DNA of 32,000 nucleotides from Candidatus Chlorohelix allophototropha (GTDB taxonomy: Bacteria > Chloroflexota > Chloroflexia > Chloroheliales > Chloroheliaceae). This document shows positions 7,410-17,825 of the stretch, piece by piece. The stretch covers positions 2,670,799-2,702,798 of the forward strand of contig NZ_CP128399.1 of assembly GCF_030389965.1 (NCBI RefSeq), given 5' to 3'. The number at the start of each line of letters is the position of its first letter. Position 1 is the first letter of the stretch. A program made the position numbers and the translations under genes. The notes under the pieces are model-generated. The model ran no database searches, was not told the origin of the DNA, and worked only from the letters and a program-made list of their open reading frames with translations.

Positions 7410-7898
7410 TCAGGGAAGGTGCTCTTGCTCGATTTCTACGCCCAGATAGCGGGTTTCTAGCGAGTCGGAGGAAATATCATCCCAAAAGCGATCTTTCAAA
7501 TAGGTGGGATAGACCGGGAGGTTTACTAATTCGTGGGCATGGAACCAACGGGTGTGCCTTTCCAATTGTTGCGGGTCGGTAACATCTGCAATAGTGGTGG
7601 CGCTCAGTTCACCCGTAAAGCGGCTGATTAGAAAAGCTAACTCAAGATGGTGGCGATGGCGGCTTGGTTCAATAAATTCTCTGAAATATAAAAGCCGACC
7701 TTCGGTTTCTACTTCAAGCCCTGTTTCTTCTCGAAATTCTCGGCGCAACGCCTCAAAAACCGATTTGTCCTGTGATTCTTGCCCACCGCCCGGTAATGTC
7801 CAGAATTCTTCGTGGCTATCGGGAGTATGCTCGTGTACCAGCAAAAGCCTGTTCGCCGCATCAAGCATGACTCCGGCTACTCTGATACGATAATTCAA
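7410..7898 (-). CDS. Nudix hydrolase
   Basis: Nudix box 'GGGQESQDKSVFEALRREFREETGLEVETEG'; overlaps the upstream gene stop by 4 nt. Confidence 0.92.
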   Translation of the reverse strand: MNYRIRVAGVMLDAANRLLLVHEHTPDSHEEFWTLPGGGQESQDKSVFEALRREFREETGLEVETEGRLLYFREFIEPSRHRHHLELAFLISRFTGELSATTIADVTDPQQLERHTRWFHAHELVNLPVYPTYLKDRFWDDISSDSLETRYLGVEIEQEHLP

Positions 7899-9373
7899 TT
7901 GAACTCCAACTCCTTATCCTGAGTGTAGTTCAAACCCAGCTTTAGCGCAATTTCCGCTTTCTGCAACTCGCGCCCCAAATAGCTGTAATGCTCTTCCAGC
8001 GAAGCCAATTTTTCGTGGGCAATCAATAGGCAAAGCTGACGGGCAGTTTTCCCCTCAAAATAATAGGGTGTATTACCTTCGATGGTGCTATGCTGCACCT
8101 TAATCAAACTCCGTTCGCGTTCAAGCTCGATGATAAAATAACCACGCGGGTCGCTACGCCAATCTAAGCGGCGTTTCTTGAAAGAGTCGATGGTATCGAG
8201 CGCGAATTTCCACTTATCGGCATAAATATGTGCCGAGTGTGAAATGATGGTAAGCGCACCAAGCCTCAAGCCCGTGTCGTCCGCGATTTCCTTTTGCAGT
8301 TTGCGCAAGGCATAGGTATTTTGTGCCCACGCGGTGTAAATATCGTGACTACGGAAACGGGCGGTCATATAAAGTGCGCCATCCTGTACCCCTGCCGAAA
8401 CTTCCAGCAAACAGGGCGGGTTATCACCCACGCTATCCTGTTCGACATCCCACGTCACCGCCACGGCGCGGCGGGTATGGTGCGCCTCGCGCAAACGCTC
8501 TTTCATCCGCGCAATTTGGTCGTGACCTTCCTCACCGAATGAACGCAGCCGTTCTCCATAGGTATAGGCTATTCCGGGTTCTTTCTCCGCGCTCAGGATT
8601 TTGGGATAGTAATTTTCTAGTTCGGCGCGACTAAAAGGCAAGTAATCAGCCCAAACGATGTCATCAGGGTTTTCATCGGTGATTACCGCTACCGTATTGT
8701 AAATCTCGCGCTGTTGCTGAGAATACTCAGTAGGCTTGATTTGCCCGAAGCGCATCACCAATTGCATTACTTCCAGCCATGTTTCGGCAACAGTTTCGCC
8801 CTGTACCCGAAATCCGGTGCGTTCGCTGGGTAGCGCCTTGCCGCCTTCTGGGGCAAGTTCGGGGAAAGTGCGAGGTTCGGCAAAAGGAGGAAGCGTAGCC
8901 AACTTAGCCAGTTCTAGCTTGATTTGCTCGGCAATTGCTTCGGGGTTTTTAGGATAGCCTTTAGCCGGACGCAAGTCAATGAGTTGCACCTGTTGGCGCA
9001 ATTCCTCCCACGCTTCGAGGGGAATACCTTCATCCAGTTTAGCCTGTGTGCCGGGAATAGTATGGTTCGCGCCAAGCCCTTTGGCAAAAAAGCTTGCCAA
9101 CGCTTCCCCGGTAGAGGATTGGTCAGCGCCACAAAGTATAAGGTAGCGTATTTGGGGAAACATGAAGATATTACGCGCCATCAGGTTGATACCCGCAAAG
9201 CTGTAAAGGTTGGCGCAGATGAAATAATCCGCAGTATCCAGTTTTTGGGCTATCAGATGACGCTGAGTCCAGAGGGTGCAAATGCCCACATTAGATTCAG
9301 GGTTGCCGATTTGGAGGTCTTTATAACTTATAAGATCGGTCAAATTATAAGTTGCGCCAAGTTCTGCGGTCAT
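7895..9373 (-). CDS. Thymidylate-synthase-like protein with N-terminal MtrA-like (tetrahydromethanopterin S-methyltransferase subunit A) domain
   Basis: N-terminal 'GNPESNVGICTLWTQRHLIAQKL...YLILCGADQSSTGEAL'; C-terminal 'QDGALYMTARFRSHDIYTAWAQNTYALRKLQKEIADDTGLRLGALTIISHSAHIY' is ThyA-like (R-S-x-D...N...G.L...S.H.Y). Confidence 0.8.
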   Translation of the reverse strand: MTAELGATYNLTDLISYKDLQIGNPESNVGICTLWTQRHLIAQKLDTADYFICANLYSFAGINLMARNIFMFPQIRYLILCGADQSSTGEALASFFAKGLGANHTIPGTQAKLDEGIPLEAWEELRQQVQLIDLRPAKGYPKNPEAIAEQIKLELAKLATLPPFAEPRTFPELAPEGGKALPSERTGFRVQGETVAETWLEVMQLVMRFGQIKPTEYSQQQREIYNTVAVITDENPDDIVWADYLPFSRAELENYYPKILSAEKEPGIAYTYGERLRSFGEEGHDQIARMKERLREAHHTRRAVAVTWDVEQDSVGDNPPCLLEVSAGVQDGALYMTARFRSHDIYTAWAQNTYALRKLQKEIADDTGLRLGALTIISHSAHIYADKWKFALDTIDSFKKRRLDWRSDPRGYFIIELERERSLIKVQHSTIEGNTPYYFEGKTARQLCLLIAHEKLASLEEHYSYLGRELQKAEIALKLGLNYTQDKELEFN

Positions 9374-9395
9374 TTATTGCTATCCCAAAGCTTTG

Positions 9396-10463
9396 TTAAT
9401 TATATTTTGTAGTTGGAAGATGAGGACCAATATATCCAATTATAATTTTACTTTCTGTAGTGGTTTGATATGGATAAAAATGCAATCTCCAAGCATTTTG
9501 TGGGAGTGAACAATGCCATTCAAACGTTCTAGTTTGACCATCGGGACAAACAAAAGTTCGTTTAGACGCATATTCTGCATTATTCATTGTAGACTCGCTT
9601 TCCTTTCGAGGTTCTCCACTTACTTGTGAAAAATCAAATGATCCTCGAGTCCGAGTACATGCTACCCTTTCAAGCTCTAATAATCGTTTTTTTATTGATC
9701 CAACCAGCTGATTTCCGTTAAGTAAGCCTTTTAGAGCATTACCAACTGAATCACAAAAATCTAATGATGGGAAAAATTCGTGTATGTTATCCCATAAATC
9801 TTTACCGTTATTAATCTTATCCAGCCGTTCAGCTTGTTCGGATGGAAGGTCGGTAGGTGAGAAAATTAGTGGGAATTTTTCCCGGATAATTTTGTCTGTA
9901 GGTAATTGTATATTTGGATCGATGGTTTCAATTTCTACCTCTATGTCAAGATGAGTAGAAACAGAAGTTAATTTTAATGTTGCTATATTTAATCCTATAC
10001 CAAAACTATGTTGGTGAAATTTACAGGCTGTTGCAGTTGTTAATAACTCACCAATTCGCTTTTTATTTTCTTCAAGAATTTGTCTAAAAATAAATTCATT
10101 TGGCAAAATTTCAATTGTTTTATGTATGGCTAAATGCCCTAAGGCATCAAATTTATTTTCTATGTCACCAATAATGGACTCTTCATCATTATTTTTATCC
10201 CTAAAAAACTGATTCAATTTTTGTGTAATCGATATAATTCTTTTGCTATTAATCCCATATCTTCTAAAATCTTCAAACATAGGGAATTTTTGATTATTTA
10301 TAAGATTGTATGTACATTTCGTGGAATGGAACCATTTATATGGCGAATTTGTGGCTTCAATAAGCCATGCCTCAAGAGCATCTACCCATTCTTCAACTGT
10401 AATTTTTTCAGCAGTATCAGAGGGTAATGTCAAAATATGAGGGTCAATAAGAAAACTTATCAA
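9396..10463 (-). CDS. Hypothetical protein, partner of downstream-encoded-first AAA ATPase; putative effector
   Basis: 355 aa ORF; TTG start (10463) overlaps the ATPase stop (TTGA) and is preceded by GGAGG, indicating translational coupling; no family recognised; C-terminal '...TFEWHCSLPQNAWRLHFYPYQTTTESKIIIGYIGPHLPTT'. Confidence 0.75.
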   Translation of the reverse strand: MISFLIDPHILTLPSDTAEKITVEEWVDALEAWLIEATNSPYKWFHSTKCTYNLINNQKFPMFEDFRRYGINSKRIISITQKLNQFFRDKNNDEESIIGDIENKFDALGHLAIHKTIEILPNEFIFRQILEENKKRIGELLTTATACKFHQHSFGIGLNIATLKLTSVSTHLDIEVEIETIDPNIQLPTDKIIREKFPLIFSPTDLPSEQAERLDKINNGKDLWDNIHEFFPSLDFCDSVGNALKGLLNGNQLVGSIKKRLLELERVACTRTRGSFDFSQVSGEPRKESESTMNNAEYASKRTFVCPDGQTRTFEWHCSLPQNAWRLHFYPYQTTTESKIIIGYIGPHLPTTKYN

Positions 10464-12334
10464 GACCTACCCTCCACTCGACTAATAATACTCTCTGATG
10501 TAATGATGCTTTCTTGAATTAAGGTTTCATCAAAGAACCCTTCAGGCCAGTTTTCGATAGCGCCATCTGATGAAATTTGGATTTTTTCAAAAGTGGTAGA
10601 GCCTGAGTCATCTTGCTTGGCAAAATATATAACGCAGTCACTTTTTTCCTGACCACCCGCTTGGACAATATGTAAACGAAGTTGGTTAATTAGGTTTTCA
10701 CTATGAGTTTCAACCAAACATTGTTTGCCACACTTAACCAATCCCACTAGAAAATCTCCTAATCTTGATTGTACTCTAGGATGCAAGTGGAGTTCCGGTT
10801 GTTCTACAATTAATAGTGTTCCTTTTGGGGCTAATAAACCCATTACCAGAATTGGGAGTATTTGGCTTACACCTACGCCAACTGCAGTTAGAGGCAAAGG
10901 GGCATTACCTTGCTTTGGAATAATTTGCCAAATTACGCCAGTTTGTCCTGCAACCTCAATTTGGACGCGCTCTCCGACATTTAAATACTTAACCCAATTA
11001 TCCAATGCATTTTTTAATTTATCCTTGTTTATATGTGATTCATAAGGATTATAATACTCTACAAAGTTATTTTGATTCGTATCATAAACATAGGCTGCAT
11101 ATTCTCCTCTGATACCAACATCATCAACTTCACTGCTTGGAGAAAATCTTTGCGCAGCTTGGGGATCTGCACGTAATGGACCTAAATAGCGAATTCGTCG
11201 TGTGAAATATTTGGCGATGTAATCTGATATTCGCTGCCATACTTCTAATTCAGGATTTTCAAAGGAAATTATTTCAATTCCCTCATCACTGCTATTAGGA
11301 AGTTCTTCATGTTTTAAGTATTCTTCGGTTATTAACGCTAGTATTAATCTATAGGCTGAAATAGTATTCCTTCTAAGGTGTAAGAGTTGTATTTTTTGGA
11401 GCCACTTGAATAAATCAAGTAATTTATCTCCTTCAAAGGAGGGGCTTATTTCAAGTTTATTCAACAAATCAAAGAAGTTTTGTTTGAAGTCTGAATCAAG
11501 CTCGATATCTTGAATCTCTTTATTTAAGGCAGTTGATCGCGTTGTTTTAGGAAAAGAAGTCATTTCTCTTAAATTCACTCTTCTCTCGAATAAATCAGAA
11601 AAGTATCTTTCATACTCTCTTTTTTTACGTTCTACCAACGAGTATTTTCCATAAAATCTTCTCGGGATAAAATGAGAAAGAGAAACTAAATATTCTTTCT
11701 TTTGTCCACCTTTATCAACTTTTACGAAGTAAGTTTTGTCGTCATCACCAAACAAGGATTTATAAATATTGTCTGGGATAACATTCGAAAAAAAAGTTCC
11801 CCTTAGTGTTTGATCCATTTCGGCAATATTTAATTGGTGCAGATTTTTAGGATTATTTTCTTCCGGGAAAAGCTCCATTTGATATAGCAACGATCTAGTT
11901 TCTAATTTTATAGATTTAAGAGATATTTTTGAAGCTTGATCACTTGAAACAGTTTGTTTATTTGGGATTAAACCACTAAATTTAGCGGAAACCTTTACAG
12001 TATCATTCAATGATTCTCTGGGTTTTCGCGAGGGAGCTCGGTCTATTGGTACTATTTGATCTAAATCCAATTCAAAATCAAGCTCGATAGTTTTATTTCT
12101 TGATTTGTTTTTTAATATATCCTTAAATTGACCAAGTTGAAGAAATAATCCATTAATTATCAACGGGCGATCAGCAATTGGGTTACTCAGTGTTTGAGCA
12201 ACCATCAAGATTGACTGTAGAATACTACTTTTCCCTGAGCTATTCTGTCCCGATAGCACAGTAAGCCCTGCTAATTCAAGCTCACCTGAGTCATCTATTG
12301 GTTTAAAACGTTTTATTCTCCACATCTTTAGCAT
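10460..12334 (-). CDS. AAA family ATPase (OLD/SMC-like, DUF3696-like C-terminus)
   Basis: Walker A 'GLTVLSGQNSSGKSSILQSILMV', signature-like 'TAVGVGVSQILPILVMGLLA', Walker B 'GTLLIVEQPELHLHPRVQSRLGDFLV', H-loop 'CLVETHSENLINQLRLHI', tail 'DGAIENWPEGFFDETL'; no TOPRIM motif seen. Confidence 0.88.
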   Translation of the reverse strand: MLKMWRIKRFKPIDDSGELELAGLTVLSGQNSSGKSSILQSILMVAQTLSNPIADRPLIINGLFLQLGQFKDILKNKSRNKTIELDFELDLDQIVPIDRAPSRKPRESLNDTVKVSAKFSGLIPNKQTVSSDQASKISLKSIKLETRSLLYQMELFPEENNPKNLHQLNIAEMDQTLRGTFFSNVIPDNIYKSLFGDDDKTYFVKVDKGGQKKEYLVSLSHFIPRRFYGKYSLVERKKREYERYFSDLFERRVNLREMTSFPKTTRSTALNKEIQDIELDSDFKQNFFDLLNKLEISPSFEGDKLLDLFKWLQKIQLLHLRRNTISAYRLILALITEEYLKHEELPNSSDEGIEIISFENPELEVWQRISDYIAKYFTRRIRYLGPLRADPQAAQRFSPSSEVDDVGIRGEYAAYVYDTNQNNFVEYYNPYESHINKDKLKNALDNWVKYLNVGERVQIEVAGQTGVIWQIIPKQGNAPLPLTAVGVGVSQILPILVMGLLAPKGTLLIVEQPELHLHPRVQSRLGDFLVGLVKCGKQCLVETHSENLINQLRLHIVQAGGQEKSDCVIYFAKQDDSGSTTFEKIQISSDGAIENWPEGFFDETLIQESIITSESIISRVEGRS

Positions 12335-12425
12335 AAATCAACCTGCCTTACTTGTTATAAATTATAAAAATTTCTTAACATTTGGATTTTTCAGTGCAAA
12401 AATAAGTTTAGAGCAATTCTGAAAA

Positions 12426-12587
12426 CTAGAGCGCAAAGAAGGTTAAATAAGTCGCGTTTGTAACAAGCAAGTCATTACAATGTAAATATTCACTTCCAAA
12501 TTTTGTAGATTCAGAACTGCCGATTTGTAGGTCTTTAAAACTGATAAGGTCGGTAATGTTAAAAGCTGCGTCAAGCTCTGCGGTCAT
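12426..12587 (-). pseudogene. Truncated, diverged copy of the 5' end of the thymidylate-synthase-like gene (first 27 codons homologous, then unrelated sequence to TAG)
   Basis: Minus-strand translation MTAELDAAFNITDLISFKDLQIGSSES... versus MTAELGATYNLTDLISYKDLQIGNPES... of the intact gene; 67/81 nt identical by hand alignment; GGGAGG Shine-Dalgarno upstream. Confidence 0.85.
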
Positions 12588-12743
12588 TTATAACTACCTC
12601 CCTGAAAACGACTAATCCACAAATTTGTGTGGTTATCCACAACTGCTAGGCACAAGGCATTAAAAAATTACTATATATTGTGGATAACTTAGAAGGTCTA
12701 ACATGTTTTACCATAATGAGCGGGATATGTCAATATAATTCAG

Positions 12744-12773
12744 TGGGTAAACGGTGGGTAAATATATTTACCT
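12744..12773. promoter_or_regulatory. Operator-like cluster: tandem GTGGGTAAA (12744-12752, 12755-12763) overlapping perfect 16-bp palindrome GGTAAATATATTTACC (12758-12773)
   Basis: Direct reading; lies 17 bp upstream of the -35 of the next promoter. Confidence 0.6.
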
Positions 12774-12790
12774 GATTTTCAGGTTATACC

Positions 12791-12819
12791 TTGACAGCCC
12801 CCGCAACGGGGAACATAAT
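12791..12819 (+). promoter_or_regulatory. Sigma-70-like promoter of the paa-type operon
   Basis: TTGACA (12791-12796), 17-nt spacer, CATAAT (12814-12819); the spacer contains the dyad CCCCG-CAA-CGGGG (12799-12811). Confidence 0.65.
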
Positions 12820-12907
12820 ATGCTACAGAATTTTCACTATCGTGCAAATTTCGTTGTATGTTGTGAGAAAAGACTCAAGCAGCTATATTTGCTCTGAGGT
12901 AGTACAA

Positions 12908-13177
12908 ATGCTCCCGCGTTCAATGTTCTTTACGCTTTACGGGGTTTATATCCGGCATTTTGGTGAAGAAATCCGCATGGGCAGCCTGATAAGATTGCTG
13001 GCAAAGGATTGGCGCGGCGGTGAAGCTTTTGACCTTTTCCGGCGCTATGACGGTTTGTTAGCTGAAGGAGCAGGACGTTATTTTTATCGGCTTTATACGC
13101 CTGATGTTTCAGCCGCCCTCGATGAAAAAGCTATTAGAGGGTTACGCGCTCAGCTTGACCCTTTCAGCGTTAGTTGA
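12908..13177 (+). pseudogene. Short PaaX-like ORF (89 aa), apparently internally deleted transcriptional regulator remnant
   Basis: 'MFFTLYGVYIRHFGEEIRMGSLIRLLA' resembles the PaaX N-terminus and 'LLAKDWRGGEAFDLFRRYDGLLAEGAGRYFYRLY' resembles its C-terminus; the full protein should be about 250-300 aa; gAGG ribosome-binding site 8 nt before the ATG. Confidence 0.55.
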
Positions 13178-13195
13178 AAATATGACAAAAGTGAG

Positions 13196-14539
13196 ATGAA
13201 TAGAATGTATTTCAACGCCGAAATAGAAACTATGCCCCGCGATGAGTTGCGGAAATTGCAACTGGAACGCCTTAAACAAACGCTTGGCTATGCTTATACA
13301 AAAGTGGCTTTCCATCAGCACCAGTTTCAACAAGCCAATGTTACGCCTGATTCGTTGCATACGCTGGAAGATTTGAACAAATTCCCCTTCATAACCAAAC
13401 CACAATTGCGAGAAAATTACCCGTTCGGGCTGTTCGCGGTCAAGCCCAACGATAAGGATAAAATAGTGCGTCTGCACGCTTCCAGCGGCACAAAAGGCAA
13501 ACCGACAGTAGTGGGTTACACCGCCCACGATATAGAAGTATGGGCGGAGAGTTGCGCCCGCGCAATCGCCTGCGCGGGAGGCAAACCCGGTGATGTGTTG
13601 CATGTGGCATATGGCTACGGGCTTTTCACGGGCGGGTTAGGCTTGCACTACGGAGGCGAGAAACTCGGCGCGTGTGTGATACCCGCATCTGGAGGCAATA
13701 CGCCACGTCAGATATTATTGATGCAAGATTTTCAAGCGCAAGGGCTGTGCTGTACCCCTAGTTATGCCTTGAATCTGGCAGAATATCTCAAAGAGCATAA
13801 TATCCCGTTGGAAAGTCTGAATCTCAAGTACGGTATTTTGGGTGCAGAACCCTGGACTGAGGAAATTCGGGTCAAGGTTGAGGAGGGCTTGGGCTTGATT
13901 GCGCTGGACATCTACGGGTTGAGCGAAATCACCGGACCGGGCGTATCAATGGAATGTCCGTACAAACAGGGCTTGCATATCTGGGAAGATTATTACCTAC
14001 CGGAAATAATAAACCCTGCTACCCTCGAACCCTTACCGGACGGTGAAATCGGCGAACTGGTCTTTACTACGCTGGCAAAAGAAGCCATCCCTATGATTCG
14101 TTACCGCACCGGCGACTTGTGTAACCTAACCTACGAAAAATGCGATTGCGGACGCACGCATGCCCGCATGGGCAAAATCAAAGGGCGCATAGATGACATG
14201 CTGATTGTGCGTGGCATCAATGTTTTCCCTTCCGAGATTGAGCGCGTGCTACTGGAATTTGAGGAACTCGCGCCACATTATCAGATTGTGCTGGAGCGCC
14301 CGGAAGTGCTGGATGTTGTGACGGTTCATTGCGAATCCACCACCGCCTTTACAGTGAGTGTCTTCGGAGATGCCGAGCATGACGAGGAACATCATCTTTT
14401 GAGCAGTTTGCGTCAACATATTATGTTGAAACTGAGAGAGGGTCTGGGAGTCAGTTTGCAGGTGAAAATCAACCCACCTCACACCATTCCCCGCAGCGAA
14501 GGCAAAGCGGTGCGCGTAGTGGATAATCGACCAAAATAA
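13196..14539 (+). CDS. paaK: Phenylacetate-CoA ligase
   Basis: 'VRLHASSGTKGKPTVVGYTAHDIEVWAE...YGLFTGGLGLHYGGEKLG...GLSEITGPGVSMEC...RYRTGDL...GRIDDMLIVRGINVFPSEIE'. Confidence 0.95.
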   Translation: MNRMYFNAEIETMPRDELRKLQLERLKQTLGYAYTKVAFHQHQFQQANVTPDSLHTLEDLNKFPFITKPQLRENYPFGLFAVKPNDKDKIVRLHASSGTKGKPTVVGYTAHDIEVWAESCARAIACAGGKPGDVLHVAYGYGLFTGGLGLHYGGEKLGACVIPASGGNTPRQILLMQDFQAQGLCCTPSYALNLAEYLKEHNIPLESLNLKYGILGAEPWTEEIRVKVEEGLGLIALDIYGLSEITGPGVSMECPYKQGLHIWEDYYLPEIINPATLEPLPDGEIGELVFTTLAKEAIPMIRYRTGDLCNLTYEKCDCGRTHARMGKIKGRIDDMLIVRGINVFPSEIERVLLEFEELAPHYQIVLERPEVLDVVTVHCESTTAFTVSVFGDAEHDEEHHLLSSLRQHIMLKLREGLGVSLQVKINPPHTIPRSEGKAVRVVDNRPK

Positions 14540-14571
14540 AATTCTTATAGCTAATAATCGTGAGGAAAAAC

Positions 14572-14880
14572 ATGGTTGTTATGGTAGCGCTGTACAAAGA
14601 ACCCGCCAACCGGGCAGAATTTGATAAATATTATTGGGAAACACATTTGCTGCTTGCCGGAAAAATCCCCGGCTTGTTAAAAAGTGAAGTATGCACCTTT
14701 TACGAACTAGAGGGCGGGGGTGAGCTTCCCTATTACCTAATGACCAAACTTTATTTTAACAGCAAGGAAGAAATGGCAGCCGCTTTCGCCACCCCTGAAG
14801 GACGCGCTACCGCCAAAGACCTGCGGAATTTCACCACACCGAGCAGTGTCACCATCACTTACGCCGAAGTTAAAGAATAA
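14572..14880 (+). CDS. EthD-domain (dimeric alpha/beta barrel) family protein
   Basis: 'MVVMVALYKEPANRAEFDKYYWETHLLLAGKIPGLLKSEV...PYYLMTKLYFNSKEEMAAAFATPEGRATAKDLRNF'. Confidence 0.8.
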   Translation: MVVMVALYKEPANRAEFDKYYWETHLLLAGKIPGLLKSEVCTFYELEGGGELPYYLMTKLYFNSKEEMAAAFATPEGRATAKDLRNFTTPSSVTITYAEVKE

Positions 14881-14896
14881 GAAAGGGTATGGATAA

Positions 14897-15673
14897 ATGG
14901 GCTTTGAGAATATTATCTATGCGAAAGTGGGAGTAGGTATCGCTAAGGTAACGCTGAATCGCCCCGAAGCGATTAACGCTTACACGCTGCTGATGCTAGG
15001 CGAGATGGCAGAGGCGTTTGCACAAGCCAAAGCCGATTCTGAAGTTCGCACCGTTATTCTGACCGGGGCAGGGCGTGGTTTCTGCGCAGGGGCTGACCTA
15101 CGCACCACCAGCACAATGGATTTTGAGAACGCACTACGTACCTATTATCGCCCTATGATTGAAGGCATTACCGGAATGGGTAAACCTGTAATCGCAATGG
15201 TAAACGGAGTAGCAGCGGGCGCGGGTATGTCCACCACTCTCGCTTGTGATTTCCGGGTAGCAGCTACTAACACACGCTTTGTAACCGCCTTCTCTAAAAT
15301 AGGGTTAGTGCCAGACGCGGGTATGTCATACCATCTACCGCGCCTTATCGGAATTGCCCGCGCTCAGGAAATGATTTCTCTGAACCGGGATGTGAGCGGG
15401 GAAGAAGCGGTATCAATAGGCTTAGCAACCAAAGTAGTAGCCCCTGAAGAACTTGAAAAAGCTACGCTGGAAATGGCGCACTCGCTGGCTAATACCACTA
15501 CGCTGGCTTTTGGCATAACTCGCCAGATGTTGCATAGCGCCTTGCAGATGACTCTGGATGAAGCGTTGGCACAGGAAGAAAAGAATCAGGCAATTGCCGG
15601 AGCGAGCGAAGATTTCAAAGAAGGGGTAGCCGCCTTTATGGAGAAACGCGCCCCAAATTTCAAAGGGAAGTAA
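14897..15673 (+). CDS. Enoyl-CoA hydratase/isomerase (PaaB/PaaG-like)
   Basis: Crotonase signatures 'TVILTGAGRGFCAGADL...IEGITGMGKPVIAMVNGVAAGAGMSTTLACDFRVAATNTRFVTAFSKIGLVPDAGMSYHLPRL'. Confidence 0.93.
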   Translation: MGFENIIYAKVGVGIAKVTLNRPEAINAYTLLMLGEMAEAFAQAKADSEVRTVILTGAGRGFCAGADLRTTSTMDFENALRTYYRPMIEGITGMGKPVIAMVNGVAAGAGMSTTLACDFRVAATNTRFVTAFSKIGLVPDAGMSYHLPRLIGIARAQEMISLNRDVSGEEAVSIGLATKVVAPEELEKATLEMAHSLANTTTLAFGITRQMLHSALQMTLDEALAQEEKNQAIAGASEDFKEGVAAFMEKRAPNFKGK

Positions 15674-15704
15674 TTTTTTGAAGTAGTTGTAAGGAGAAGT
15701 ACAA

Positions 15705-16523
15705 ATGGCAACCACTATTACTATGAGTGAAGCTGAGATTGAAGCGGCAATGCTGGCAAAAATCGAGAATGGCGAAAAGCTTGAGCCAAACGACCCGATG
15801 ACCGCCGAATACCGCGAGTTGCTGCTGAACCTGCTTACCATGCAAGCGGATAGCGAGCTTTCCGGCGGGTACGGCTATATCCCATGGATTAGCCAAGCGC
15901 CCACCATCGAGGAAAAATTGATTGTTGCCAATATTGTGCGGGACGAGATTTTGCATGGCAAACGCATGTATAAATTGCTGGAAGATTTGGGGGTAGAAGT
16001 CGATTCGCGTATCAGGGAAAACGATGAAGCTTTTCTGTATCGGCTGGACGATAACAGCGCCAACATCGGGACACAACGCGCCAAAACCGATAAGCGGGTT
16101 AACATCTTCTACTACCCGATTGAAACTTGGACTGATTTTATAATGTTCAATTTCTGCATGGATCGCGGAGCGGGTCACCAATTGCATGATGCGCTACATT
16201 GCAGCTACGCACCATGGGCGCGGGTCACCGAACAAATCTTCAAGGAAGAGGTAACACATGTGGCGCATGGCGAGAAGTGGGTAAAGAAATTGGCACAAGA
16301 CCCCGCAACCCGCGAGGAATGTCAGCAAACCTTTAACAAATGGTATCTGCGCACGATGAACATATTCGGGCGCGGTAACAGCCCCAAAAACGCGCTGTAT
16401 CGCAAATATCGCCTCAAGTTGCGCGATAACGATGAAGTGCGCGATACTTTTCATCGGGAAGTGGTTGAATTGGTTACAAAGTGGGGGCTGACCGTACCGG
16501 AATGGAAACCGGAGAATATATAA
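15705..16523 (+). CDS. PaaA/PaaC-like di-iron protein (phenylacetic acid catabolic protein family)
   Basis: Ferritin-like di-iron ligand pattern: 'QADSELSGG', 'VRDEILHGKRMYKLLEDLG' (ExxH), 'EQIFKEEVTHVAHGEKWV' (ExxH). Confidence 0.8.
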   Translation: MATTITMSEAEIEAAMLAKIENGEKLEPNDPMTAEYRELLLNLLTMQADSELSGGYGYIPWISQAPTIEEKLIVANIVRDEILHGKRMYKLLEDLGVEVDSRIRENDEAFLYRLDDNSANIGTQRAKTDKRVNIFYYPIETWTDFIMFNFCMDRGAGHQLHDALHCSYAPWARVTEQIFKEEVTHVAHGEKWVKKLAQDPATREECQQTFNKWYLRTMNIFGRGNSPKNALYRKYRLKLRDNDEVRDTFHREVVELVTKWGLTVPEWKPENI

Positions 16524-16566
16524 CGAGCGTTATATATTCAGCCGAGAAAAATAAGGGAAATAGGCG

Positions 16567-17766
16567 ATGGAAGAAGCGGTAATTGTCTCGGCAGTGCGCA
16601 CCCCTATTGGGCGGTATGGAGGCGCATTGGCAACAGTGCGCCCGGATAATTTGGGCGCAATCGTTATTGCCGAAGCAATCAGGCGCACAGGTATAGAAGC
16701 AAGCATGGTTGAAGATGTAATCTTCGGCTGTGCCAATCAGTCGGGCGAAGATAACCGCAACGTGGCACGTATGAGCCTTTTGCTGGCAGGCTTGCCCATT
16801 GAAACGGCGGGTGTAACGGTGAATCGTTTGTGCGGTAGCGGACTGCAAGCGGTAAACGATGCGGCACGTGCCATCAAAGTGGGCGAGGGCGAGGTACTAA
16901 TAGCTGGCGGAGTAGAGAGTATGACCCGCGCTCCTTTTGTAATGGCAAAACCCACCGAGGCATGGCAGCGGGGCAACCCAACTTTGCATGATACTACGCT
17001 CGGTTGGCGTTTCATCAATCCGCGCCTTTCCGAGATGTACTACCCTTACAACATGGGCGAAACCGCCGAAAACGTGGTGGACAAGTATAAAATCAGTCGA
17101 GAAGATCAGGATTTGTTCGCCTACAATTCGCAGAAGCGCGCCACCAATGCTATCGGTGAGGGAAAGTTCAAAGCAGAGATTGTTCCGGTGAAAGTGCCCC
17201 AACGCAAAGGCGAACCGTTTCTGTTTGATACGGACGAACACCCCCGCGCCGATACTACTTTGGAAGCTCTTGCAAAACTCAAACCCGCTTTCCGCAAGGA
17301 TGGAACTGTAACCGCCGGAAATAGTAGCGGCATCAATGATGGGGCTGCTGCGCTGGTGCTGATGTCCGGCAGCAAAGCAGCACAATTGGGTTTGAAACCT
17401 TTGGCGCGGATAGTGACATCAGCGGTGGCAGGGGTTGACCCGGCTACTATGGGGCTTGGACCTATTCCTGCCAGTCGCAAGGCGTTGCAACGCGCCGGGC
17501 TTACGGTAGCTGACTTAGATTTAATTGAGATTAACGAAGCCTTTGCTAGCCAAAGCCTCGCATGTATGCGCGAACTAGGACTCGACCCCGAAAAGGTGAA
17601 CGTGAACGGCGGCGCAATCGCGCTAGGGCACCCGCTTGGTTGTAGCGGGGCGCGCATGCTTACTACTCTTTTATACGAGATGGAACGGCGCGGCTCAAGA
17701 TATGGGCTGGCGACTATGTGCATCGGGGTAGGGCAGGGCATCGCAACTATCATAGAACGACTATAA
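16567..17766 (+). CDS. Acetyl-CoA acyltransferase (thiolase, PaaJ-like)
   Basis: '[33 protein letters not shown]...[14 protein letters not shown]...[24 protein letters not shown]...[16 protein letters not shown]'. Confidence 0.95.
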
Positions 17767-17792
17767 ACTCCCTTATCTCCTGCTTTTAAAAG

Positions 17793-17825
17793 ACCCTCGG
17801 CTTGTTATTTTACCGAGGGTTTTTA
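17793..17825 (+). terminator. Rho-independent terminator of the paa-type operon
   Basis: ACCCTCGG (17793-17800) / CCGAGGGT (17813-17820) followed by TTTT. Confidence 0.85.

Follow-up and report, generated by a model that had tools for sequence, protein, structure and literature searches.

A Menshen-related two-gene cassette between two copies of the 5' end of a thymidylate-synthase-like gene in Candidatus Chlorohelix allophototropha

The locus and the flanking repeat

We have analysed a stretch of 32 kb from Candidatus Chlorohelix allophototropha (contig NZ_CP128399.1, positions 2,670,799 to 2,702,798; hereafter the window, to which all coordinates without a prefix refer), in which an island of 3.1 kb with two genes related to the Menshen defence system lies at the 5' end of a thymidylate-synthase-like gene, the target gene. 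The first 27 codons of the target gene are present on both sides of the island. The 5' end of the intact gene is referred to as copy I and the remnant at the other side as copy R. The features of the locus, with lengths in nucleotides (nt) or amino acids (aa), open reading frames abbreviated to ORFs and Shine-Dalgarno sequences to SD, are the following.

7895..9373, minus strand: target gene, intact, 492 aa, a fusion of an MtrA-like N-terminal domain, a thymidylate-synthase-like domain and DUF4346
9292..9386, minus strand: repeat copy I, the working 5' end, with a weak SD GGGA (9386-9383), TAGCAATAA, the ATG at 9373 and codons 1-27
9396..10463, minus strand: nsnC-like effector gene, 355 aa, TTG start, 4-nt overlap with the stop of the ATPase gene; PADLOC NsnC 7.8e-39 over residues 214-354
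10460..12334, minus strand: nsnB-like gene for a long ATP-binding cassette (ABC) ATPase with a DUF3696 tail, 624 aa; Pfam AAA_15, AAA_21 and DUF3696, PADLOC NsnB 1.6e-77
12335..12505, minus strand: island leader, 171 nt, non-coding except where the remnant ORF runs into it out of context; the TATAAT at 12366-12361 is perfect, and a good -35 is missing
12426..12587, minus strand: remnant ORF, 53 aa, in which 26 unrelated codons and a stop come after the 27 native ones
12506..12602, minus strand: repeat copy R, by its alignment the displaced original 5' end, decaying, with the SD GGGAGG (12602-12597), the ATG at 12587 and codons 1-27
12603..12885, minus strand: native promoter region of the target gene, which aligns to L001:9711-10000 at 81% identity

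The target protein (NWJ44649/WJW66538) matches PF04208, PF00303 and PF14251 of Pfam and TIGR03283 of NCBIfam (1.2e-48); the accession of the NsnC-like protein is NWJ44650/WJW66539. A repeat search revealed a direct repeat of 91 nt (9292-9382 and 12506-12596) with 82% identity and a spacing of 3214 nt. Within codons 1-27, 67 of the 81 coding nt are alike (82.7%, 14 sites differ), and the encoded differences between copies I and R are Y/F (twice), L/I, G/D, T/A, N/S and P/S. The repeat extends 5' of the ATG via TAGCAATAA/TAGTTATAA and, judged by the letters, probably into the SD (GGGA versus GGGAGG). A local alignment of one flank against the other scored 51, where shuffled flanks scored 10.1 +/- 0.9, and the probability of at least 75 matches out of 91 by chance is about 5e-27. 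The preliminary description of this DNA, which was made from the letters alone, had already reported that codons 1-27 recur about 3.2 kb upstream, in the same orientation and with about 83% identity, that the reading frame then diverges, that the remnant has the SD GGGAGG and that a two-gene cassette sits exactly between the copies, and on each of these points the alignment and the gene boundaries agree with it.

The similarity between the copies ends exactly at codon 27, where DNA of low guanine-plus-cytosine (GC) content begins. The 3.1 kb between the copies has a GC content of 33-37%, with values of 0.27-0.41, versus about 0.50 in the flanks, and outside the insert only the native intergenic region, which is AT-rich, shows such a drop; the composition thus supports a foreign origin of the segment between the repeats. 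A transposon or insertion sequence was considered and rejected, as there is no transposase, terminal inverted repeats are missing at 9383 and at 12505, and the duplication is 91 nt long and diverged.

The empty site in the closest relative

A scan of genome contigs for relatives returned Candidatus Chlorohelix sp. ELA319 (L001) and two distant metagenome-assembled genomes (MAGs; 65-71% aa identity, other neighbours) only, and a scan of metagenomes returned a contig identical to ELA319 (L004) and one short distant contig only. The target gene of ELA319, the closest relative, is 92% identical in aa and 88.2% identical in nt, and it is uninterrupted: the native promoter, the DnaA boxes and the SD run directly into the gene, which constitutes an empty site. 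The upstream sequence of ELA319 aligns over about 290 nt with the window sequence 5' of the remnant, and not with that 5' of the intact gene. Because promoter, DnaA boxes and SD align on the side of the remnant, the remnant is, on this comparison, the displaced original 5' end, still joined to the native promoter, as had been proposed in the preliminary description.

Copy R is decaying. The changes found in this copy alone are G6D, T8A, N24S and P25S; N24S and P25S fall within the conserved IGNPxSNVG motif, so that the GNP that is conserved across the target family reads GSS in the remnant; 4 of the 8 changed codons are non-synonymous. In copy I the frame is kept, the SD is usable and the aa changes are all conservative (F9Y, L11, F17Y).

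As far as one relative allows, it is excluded that all relatives have the remnant, that it belongs to a paralogue or that it is a small conserved protein, in line with what the preliminary description had supposed. The same description had expected the empty site to have the target gene beside paaX/paaK. An empty site exists, with another neighbour: in ELA319 a BNR/sortilin-like gene directly abuts the shared promoter region, and the paa genes are missing. The suggestion that the locus is a hotspot where cargo is swapped finds no backing, as only this cargo or the empty site was seen. The assemblies of the same strain (L006-L008) all carry the island. One of them, the Logan contig L008, which encodes an identical protein, had been considered as an empty-site variant and turned out to be of the same strain and to share its nsnC junction.

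The phenylacetate-type module next to the shared promoter region (12886-17817, 4.9 kb) is a separate indel and not a neighbour of the empty site. It has a host-like GC content and comprises a truncated paaX of 89 aa, paaK, EthD, an enoyl-CoA hydratase, a PaaA/C-like gene and a thiolase. The genes are co-oriented and located between a divergent promoter (TTGACA-17-CATAAT at 12791-12819, kept in ELA319) and the BNR gene, so that the module mirrors the cassette insertion across the promoter region. No convincing duplication was found at its boundaries. The product of paaX (12909-13177, plus strand) matches the N-terminus of PaaX (TIGR02277, 9.4e-06) over about 28 residues at its start, and the remainder of this regulator of about 280 aa is missing, probably as the result of an internal deletion or because the gene is a pseudogene.

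The cargo

The Pfam matches of the ATPase include AAA_15 (1.7e-24) and DUF3696 (2.6e-11). The PADLOC profile of NsnB matches in two pieces, positions 1-108 to residues 1-133 and positions 69-335 to residues 344-604, and the ATPase therefore has a large insert, of about 210-260 aa relative to canonical NsnB. Its structure model (predicted local distance difference test, pLDDT, 81) has a head that resembles Rad50/SMC/PtuA. In the assembly from SRR24769763, which is of the same strain, the gene carries a 1-nt indel relative to the window and L006 (L007:3041-4855), by which the ATPase is cut to 604 aa and DUF3696 is removed; the cause is an error of the assembly or else a subpopulation in which the cassette is inactivated.

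The C-terminal part of the NsnC-like protein (residues 205-355) is modelled by AlphaFold with a pLDDT above 90. The best folds in the PDB are the YoeB/ParE toxin 6n90_A (probability 0.82) and RelE, with weak E-values of 0.35-0.7. This predicted fold agrees with the BECR RNase that was assigned to the C-terminus of NsnC (PMC12065111). Residues 1-205, modelled with a pLDDT mostly below 60, gave no family match, and similarity to the inactive PIN domain (inPIN) of NsnC was not detected either. The island contains no third ORF, and the scans of the window gave no match to DUF262/GmrSD_N for an NsnA. By its profile matches, the cargo is a derivative of Menshen, in which NsnB and the C-terminal part of NsnC are recognized and NsnA is missing. 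The leader upstream of the ATPase gene is not conserved among related cassettes, and an Rfam scan of 9000-13400 gave no match.

The cassette at other loci

The long ATPase with a partner of about 350 aa forms a widespread two-gene family. We found 805 matches to the ATPase at E <= 1e-30, and the same gene pair was present in every locus of the family that was inspected, mostly on Chloroflexota-like contigs. The closest ATPase is 55% identical and stems from a Chloroflexota MAG, where the cassette has no flanking repeat. The closest relative of the NsnC-like protein (39% identical), which is also the only full-length one, is encoded on a contig of 1.7 kb (L016:1-1731), after the C-terminus of a highly similar ATPase, with an alpha/beta-hydrolase gene 175 nt downstream; the closest cassette thus lies at a different target.

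The flanks were compared at seven other loci of the family, eight with the window included. A duplicated end of a host gene flanks the cassette at two of the seven, both of them without an integrase. A Ktedonosporobacter MAG (L019/L020) has an aminotransferase gene upstream of the cassette, of which roughly the final 10 codons (RLLTAVKALFRG and stop) are repeated 210 nt past the cassette (GLLTAIKALF and stop), with 29 of 33 nt alike and a score of 21.5 versus 10.4 +/- 1.0 (L019:5605-5652 and 9202-9249). At the other locus (L022) the 3' end of a HAD-hydrolase gene, with its stop codon and adjoining sequence, recurs from 3 nt past the stop of the cassette, with 20 of 22 and 13 of 13 nt alike and a score of 17 versus 10.8 +/- 0.9 (L022:5798-5860 and 8974-9021). 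The two repeats have the core CTGTGAAG(G)CGC in common; this CTGTGAAGGCGC core was not found at the other loci. In all three cases, that of the window included, a circular form of the cassette would have one and the same order: stop codon of gene 2, copy of the gene end, leader, ATPase.

At one locus (L023:9050-11202) an HTH_17 gene and a gene for a large serine recombinase of 537 aa lie directly downstream of the cassette, and an IS66 transposase lies upstream; at this locus neither a flanking repeat nor a site that it shares with the window was detected. The DNA that the cassettes have in common runs only from about -25 of the ATG of the ATPase gene to the stop of gene 2. Viral contigs contained only distant DUF3696 ATPases (25-42% identity) and, in a scan for the site at codons 18-27, no copy of the attachment-site sequence. 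The resemblance to dif-like (Xer) sites was weak by eye, and an element of the IMEX type was dropped as unsupported. Taken together, the loci are a lead, and not a demonstration, that the cassettes travel as small non-autonomous units.

Origin of the working 5' end

The alignment of copy I, copy R and ELA319 over 81 nt contains 7 sites unique to I, 6 unique to R, 1 unique to ELA319 and 1 at which all three differ. Hardly any change relative to ELA319 is common to copies I and R, while the species differ by 11.8% across the gene, and the two copies are therefore not recent sisters. Moreover, codon 11 is Leu in all 10 alignable outgroup proteins and in copy I (TTG), and a derived Ile in copy R (ATT) and ELA319 (ATC); in the two outgroup loci that were read as DNA it is TTA and CTT. 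The pattern at this codon thus groups copy R with ELA319 and leaves copy I outside them. Copy I equals ELA319 across 34 nt (-9 to +25), after which its 7 unique sites follow (nt 26-72), and the alignment hints at a crossover near nt +25. Based on these few sites, we favour a working 5' end that is a foreign copy, derived from another Chlorohelix-like genome. Tests of distances, runs and breakpoints in the three-way alignment are no more than suggestive.

We lean, with some reserve, towards an event in which the foreign segment recombined into the 5' end of the gene and brought its own copy of the start along, in a site-specific or Campbell-type manner. In such an event 3.1 kb of foreign DNA with a Menshen-type cassette of two genes, for a long NsnB ABC ATPase and an NsnC-like RNase effector of the RelE/YoeB fold, would have entered the 5' end of the target gene in the lineage of Ca. 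Chlorohelix allophototropha. The incoming DNA would have borne a copy of its own of the gene's ribosome-binding site and codons 1-27, with a Chlorohelix-like genome as the source, and an exchange within the homology of about 95 nt (an attP x attB-type or a Campbell-type single crossover) would have left two copies, with the original start stranded behind the native DnaA-box promoter and the substitute start fused to the body of the gene. As no recombinase is encoded, the island would either have decayed or be non-autonomous, with the gene for the enzyme that moves it at another place.

A number of observations weigh against an import of this kind. The argument from codon 11 concerns a single codon, and the comparison includes one close relative genome. 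The distance to ELA319 is at background for both copies (9 and 8 differences per 81 nt versus 9.6 expected), and distances alone can therefore not separate an imported from a duplicated copy. The order of the informative sites is RRRRR IIIIII RR I R, for which runs tests gave P values of 0.07-0.12. As the preliminary description had remarked, an integrase is not visible: neither an integrase nor an excisionase or a transposase was found in the island or elsewhere in the window by searches of the island ORFs and all large ORFs with Pfam, NCBIfam and PADLOC, and the window has no tRNA gene either. Finally, 5 of the 8 loci of the cassette family lack a flanking repeat, and recombinase-binding repeats, a conserved attachment site (att) or a leader common to the cassettes were not found.

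The lack of a recombinase, the five loci without a repeat and the distance of copy I to ELA319, which is that of the rest of the gene, would also fit a duplication in place, which we consider unlikely on balance. Here the foreign DNA would have been joined at a staggered break or via a template switch during replication, by which about 95 nt of host sequence, from the SD to codon 27, were doubled; both copies would be native and have diverged later, one under selection and the other freely. Such an origin is in line with the different lengths of the repeat at the different loci (91, 33 and 22+13 nt), and it would explain why the repeats are found at gene ends, as insertions there survive only if the duplication restores the gene. 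However, copies I and R have no more than one derived site in common versus ELA319, so that the duplication would have to be about as old as the split of the species, and codon 11 of copy I would need a two-step reversion from ATY (Ile) to the ancestral Leu TTG. In addition, 8 of the 9 differences between copy I and ELA319 fall on the branch of copy I (binomial P about 0.02), and the core common to the repeats of L019 and L022 would be a coincidence, the chance of which is estimated at less than 1%. No bacterial insertion mechanism is known to produce target duplications of 30-90 nt.

Still more doubtful is an ancient island, present with the cassette and both copies in the common ancestor and lost from ELA319 by recombination between the copies, which would have left one chimeric 5' end. 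The 5' end of ELA319 is indeed mosaic-like, being the same as copy I at nt 1-25, as copy R at nt 26-59 except for nt 33, and as copy I again at most later sites, and the divergence between the copies (17%) exceeds that between the species (12%). Nevertheless, a simple crossover from R to I predicts an R-like 5' end and an I-like 3' end, whereas ELA319 is I-like at nt 1-25, so that extra changes in R are needed. Recombination between repeats of 91 nt that had already diverged would be inefficient, and the origin of the repeat would be left unexplained, the event merely being moved back in time. That the upstream copy is a functional small gene, a leader peptide or part of a paralogue rather than a scar of the insertion is very improbable in spite of its strong SD and open frame of 53 codons, since it is missing in ELA319, lacks a match in Pfam and NCBIfam, loses its similarity just where the low-GC DNA begins and has accumulated non-synonymous changes, among them the loss of the GNP motif.

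Promoter, DnaA boxes and expression

The native promoter reads TTGACA-17-TAAAAC (12733-12705) and its counterpart in ELA319 TTGGCA-17-TAAAAT. Between the -10 and the SD, in the 5' untranslated region, sites that resemble DnaA boxes are present: two perfect inverted boxes TTATCCACA (12679-12687 and 12633-12641) and a box with 8 of 9 positions alike (12613-12621). Both perfect boxes are kept in ELA319 (L001:9890-9960), where the third was not re-found. This arrangement suggests that a gene for nucleotide synthesis is controlled by DnaA, and that the inserted defence cassette may now be under the same control.

The new ATG of the target gene lies 22 nt past the stop of nsnC and is preceded by only 9-15 nt of native-like sequence, with the weakened SD GGGA. 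No promoter-like site was found between the nsnC stop and the new ATG. In the preliminary description the element had been credited with a replacement 5' end and a promoter; a working second 5' end is present, for which import is favoured and unproven, and the promoter part of the claim is not supported. The remnant ORF, nsnB, nsnC, the target gene and the NUDIX gene beyond have the same orientation, with no strong terminator between them. Most likely, the target gene depends on read-through from the native promoter and/or from the cassette, and cassette and target gene would probably be read as one unit from the native promoter, possibly aided by a weak promoter in the leader.

Implications

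The locus is a clean case in nature of a small defence system being taken up by a chromosome while an important gene is spared, with the occupied and the empty site in sister species. The insertion has put an RNase-based cassette and a thymidylate-synthase-like gene downstream of a promoter with conserved DnaA boxes, a regulatory link that can be tested. In case the gene-end repeats at 3 of the 8 loci reflect a shared mechanism, the cassette would be a minimal mobile unit without an integrase, which would bear on the movement of defence genes between genomes that show no mobility genes. One could speculate further, at a low likelihood, that the pairs of a long NsnB and an NsnC-like protein are recombinase-less mobile defence cassettes of about 3 kb in the Chloroflexota, which would enter either end of a housekeeping gene, 5' or 3', in the direction of that gene, bring a replacement for the gene end just past the stop of gene 2, plug into the transcription unit of the host gene (here the one controlled by the DnaA boxes) and be moved by an enzyme supplied in trans.

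Comparison with known systems

In Menshen the ATPase was proposed to act as the transducer and NsnC as the effector (PMC12065111). The cargo of the island is like Menshen in that an NsnB-type ABC ATPase with a DUF3696 tail is followed by a translationally coupled NsnC-type protein with a BECR/RelE-like C-terminal domain. It is unlike Menshen in that the island lacks NsnA, the sensor with ParB-DUF262 and ParBDB, that the insert of about 210-260 aa in the ATPase is conserved, that the N-terminal half of the NsnC-like protein is without detectable similarity to inPIN, and that the pair constitutes a widespread two-gene family of its own. The canonical Menshen loci in our comparison (L011-L015) encode a DUF262 NsnA, an NsnB of about 380 aa and an NsnC of 317 aa.

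With respect to the site, the island resembles several integrative elements. The cryptic prophage e14 and phage 21 carry a diverged end of their target gene icd, and their integration results in a working hybrid gene and a displaced remnant that differ mainly at synonymous positions. A working hybrid and a displaced remnant are likewise found here, whereas e14 and phage 21 target the 3' end and encode their own integrase. The element SXT is said in a paper of 1999 to be about 100 kb in size, to encode its own tyrosine integrase, Xis and conjugation genes, and to supply a promoter. Unlike SXT/R391, the island is only 3.1 kb in size, has two cargo genes and no recombinase, and supplies at most a weak SD and 27 codons. 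The geometry is that of SXT/R391 at the 5' end of prfC (PMC2791158), where the gene is functional with a start derived from the element and its former start ends up at the opposite side of the element.

The lack of an integrase is shared with the cis-mobilizable elements (CIMEs), which are decayed integrative elements that have kept attL and attR and have lost the integration genes, and whose movement is thought to require the help of a related element that comes in (PMC5704250). The island is like a CIME in being flanked by att-type repeats without an integrase (PMC5704250). However, CIMEs have been defined in Firmicutes, beside or derived from identifiable integrative and conjugative or integrative and mobilizable elements, whereas the scan of viral contigs revealed no cognate integrase-bearing element with the same site. 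Moreover, three separate loci of one small cassette family all lack an integrase, which would be odd for independent decay. Of the characteristics of a site-specific integrative element, the island has the flanking repeat (91 nt, 82%) and the empty site (L001, L004) and lacks an integrase of its own; it is a familiar kind of genomic island, unusual in having no integrase.

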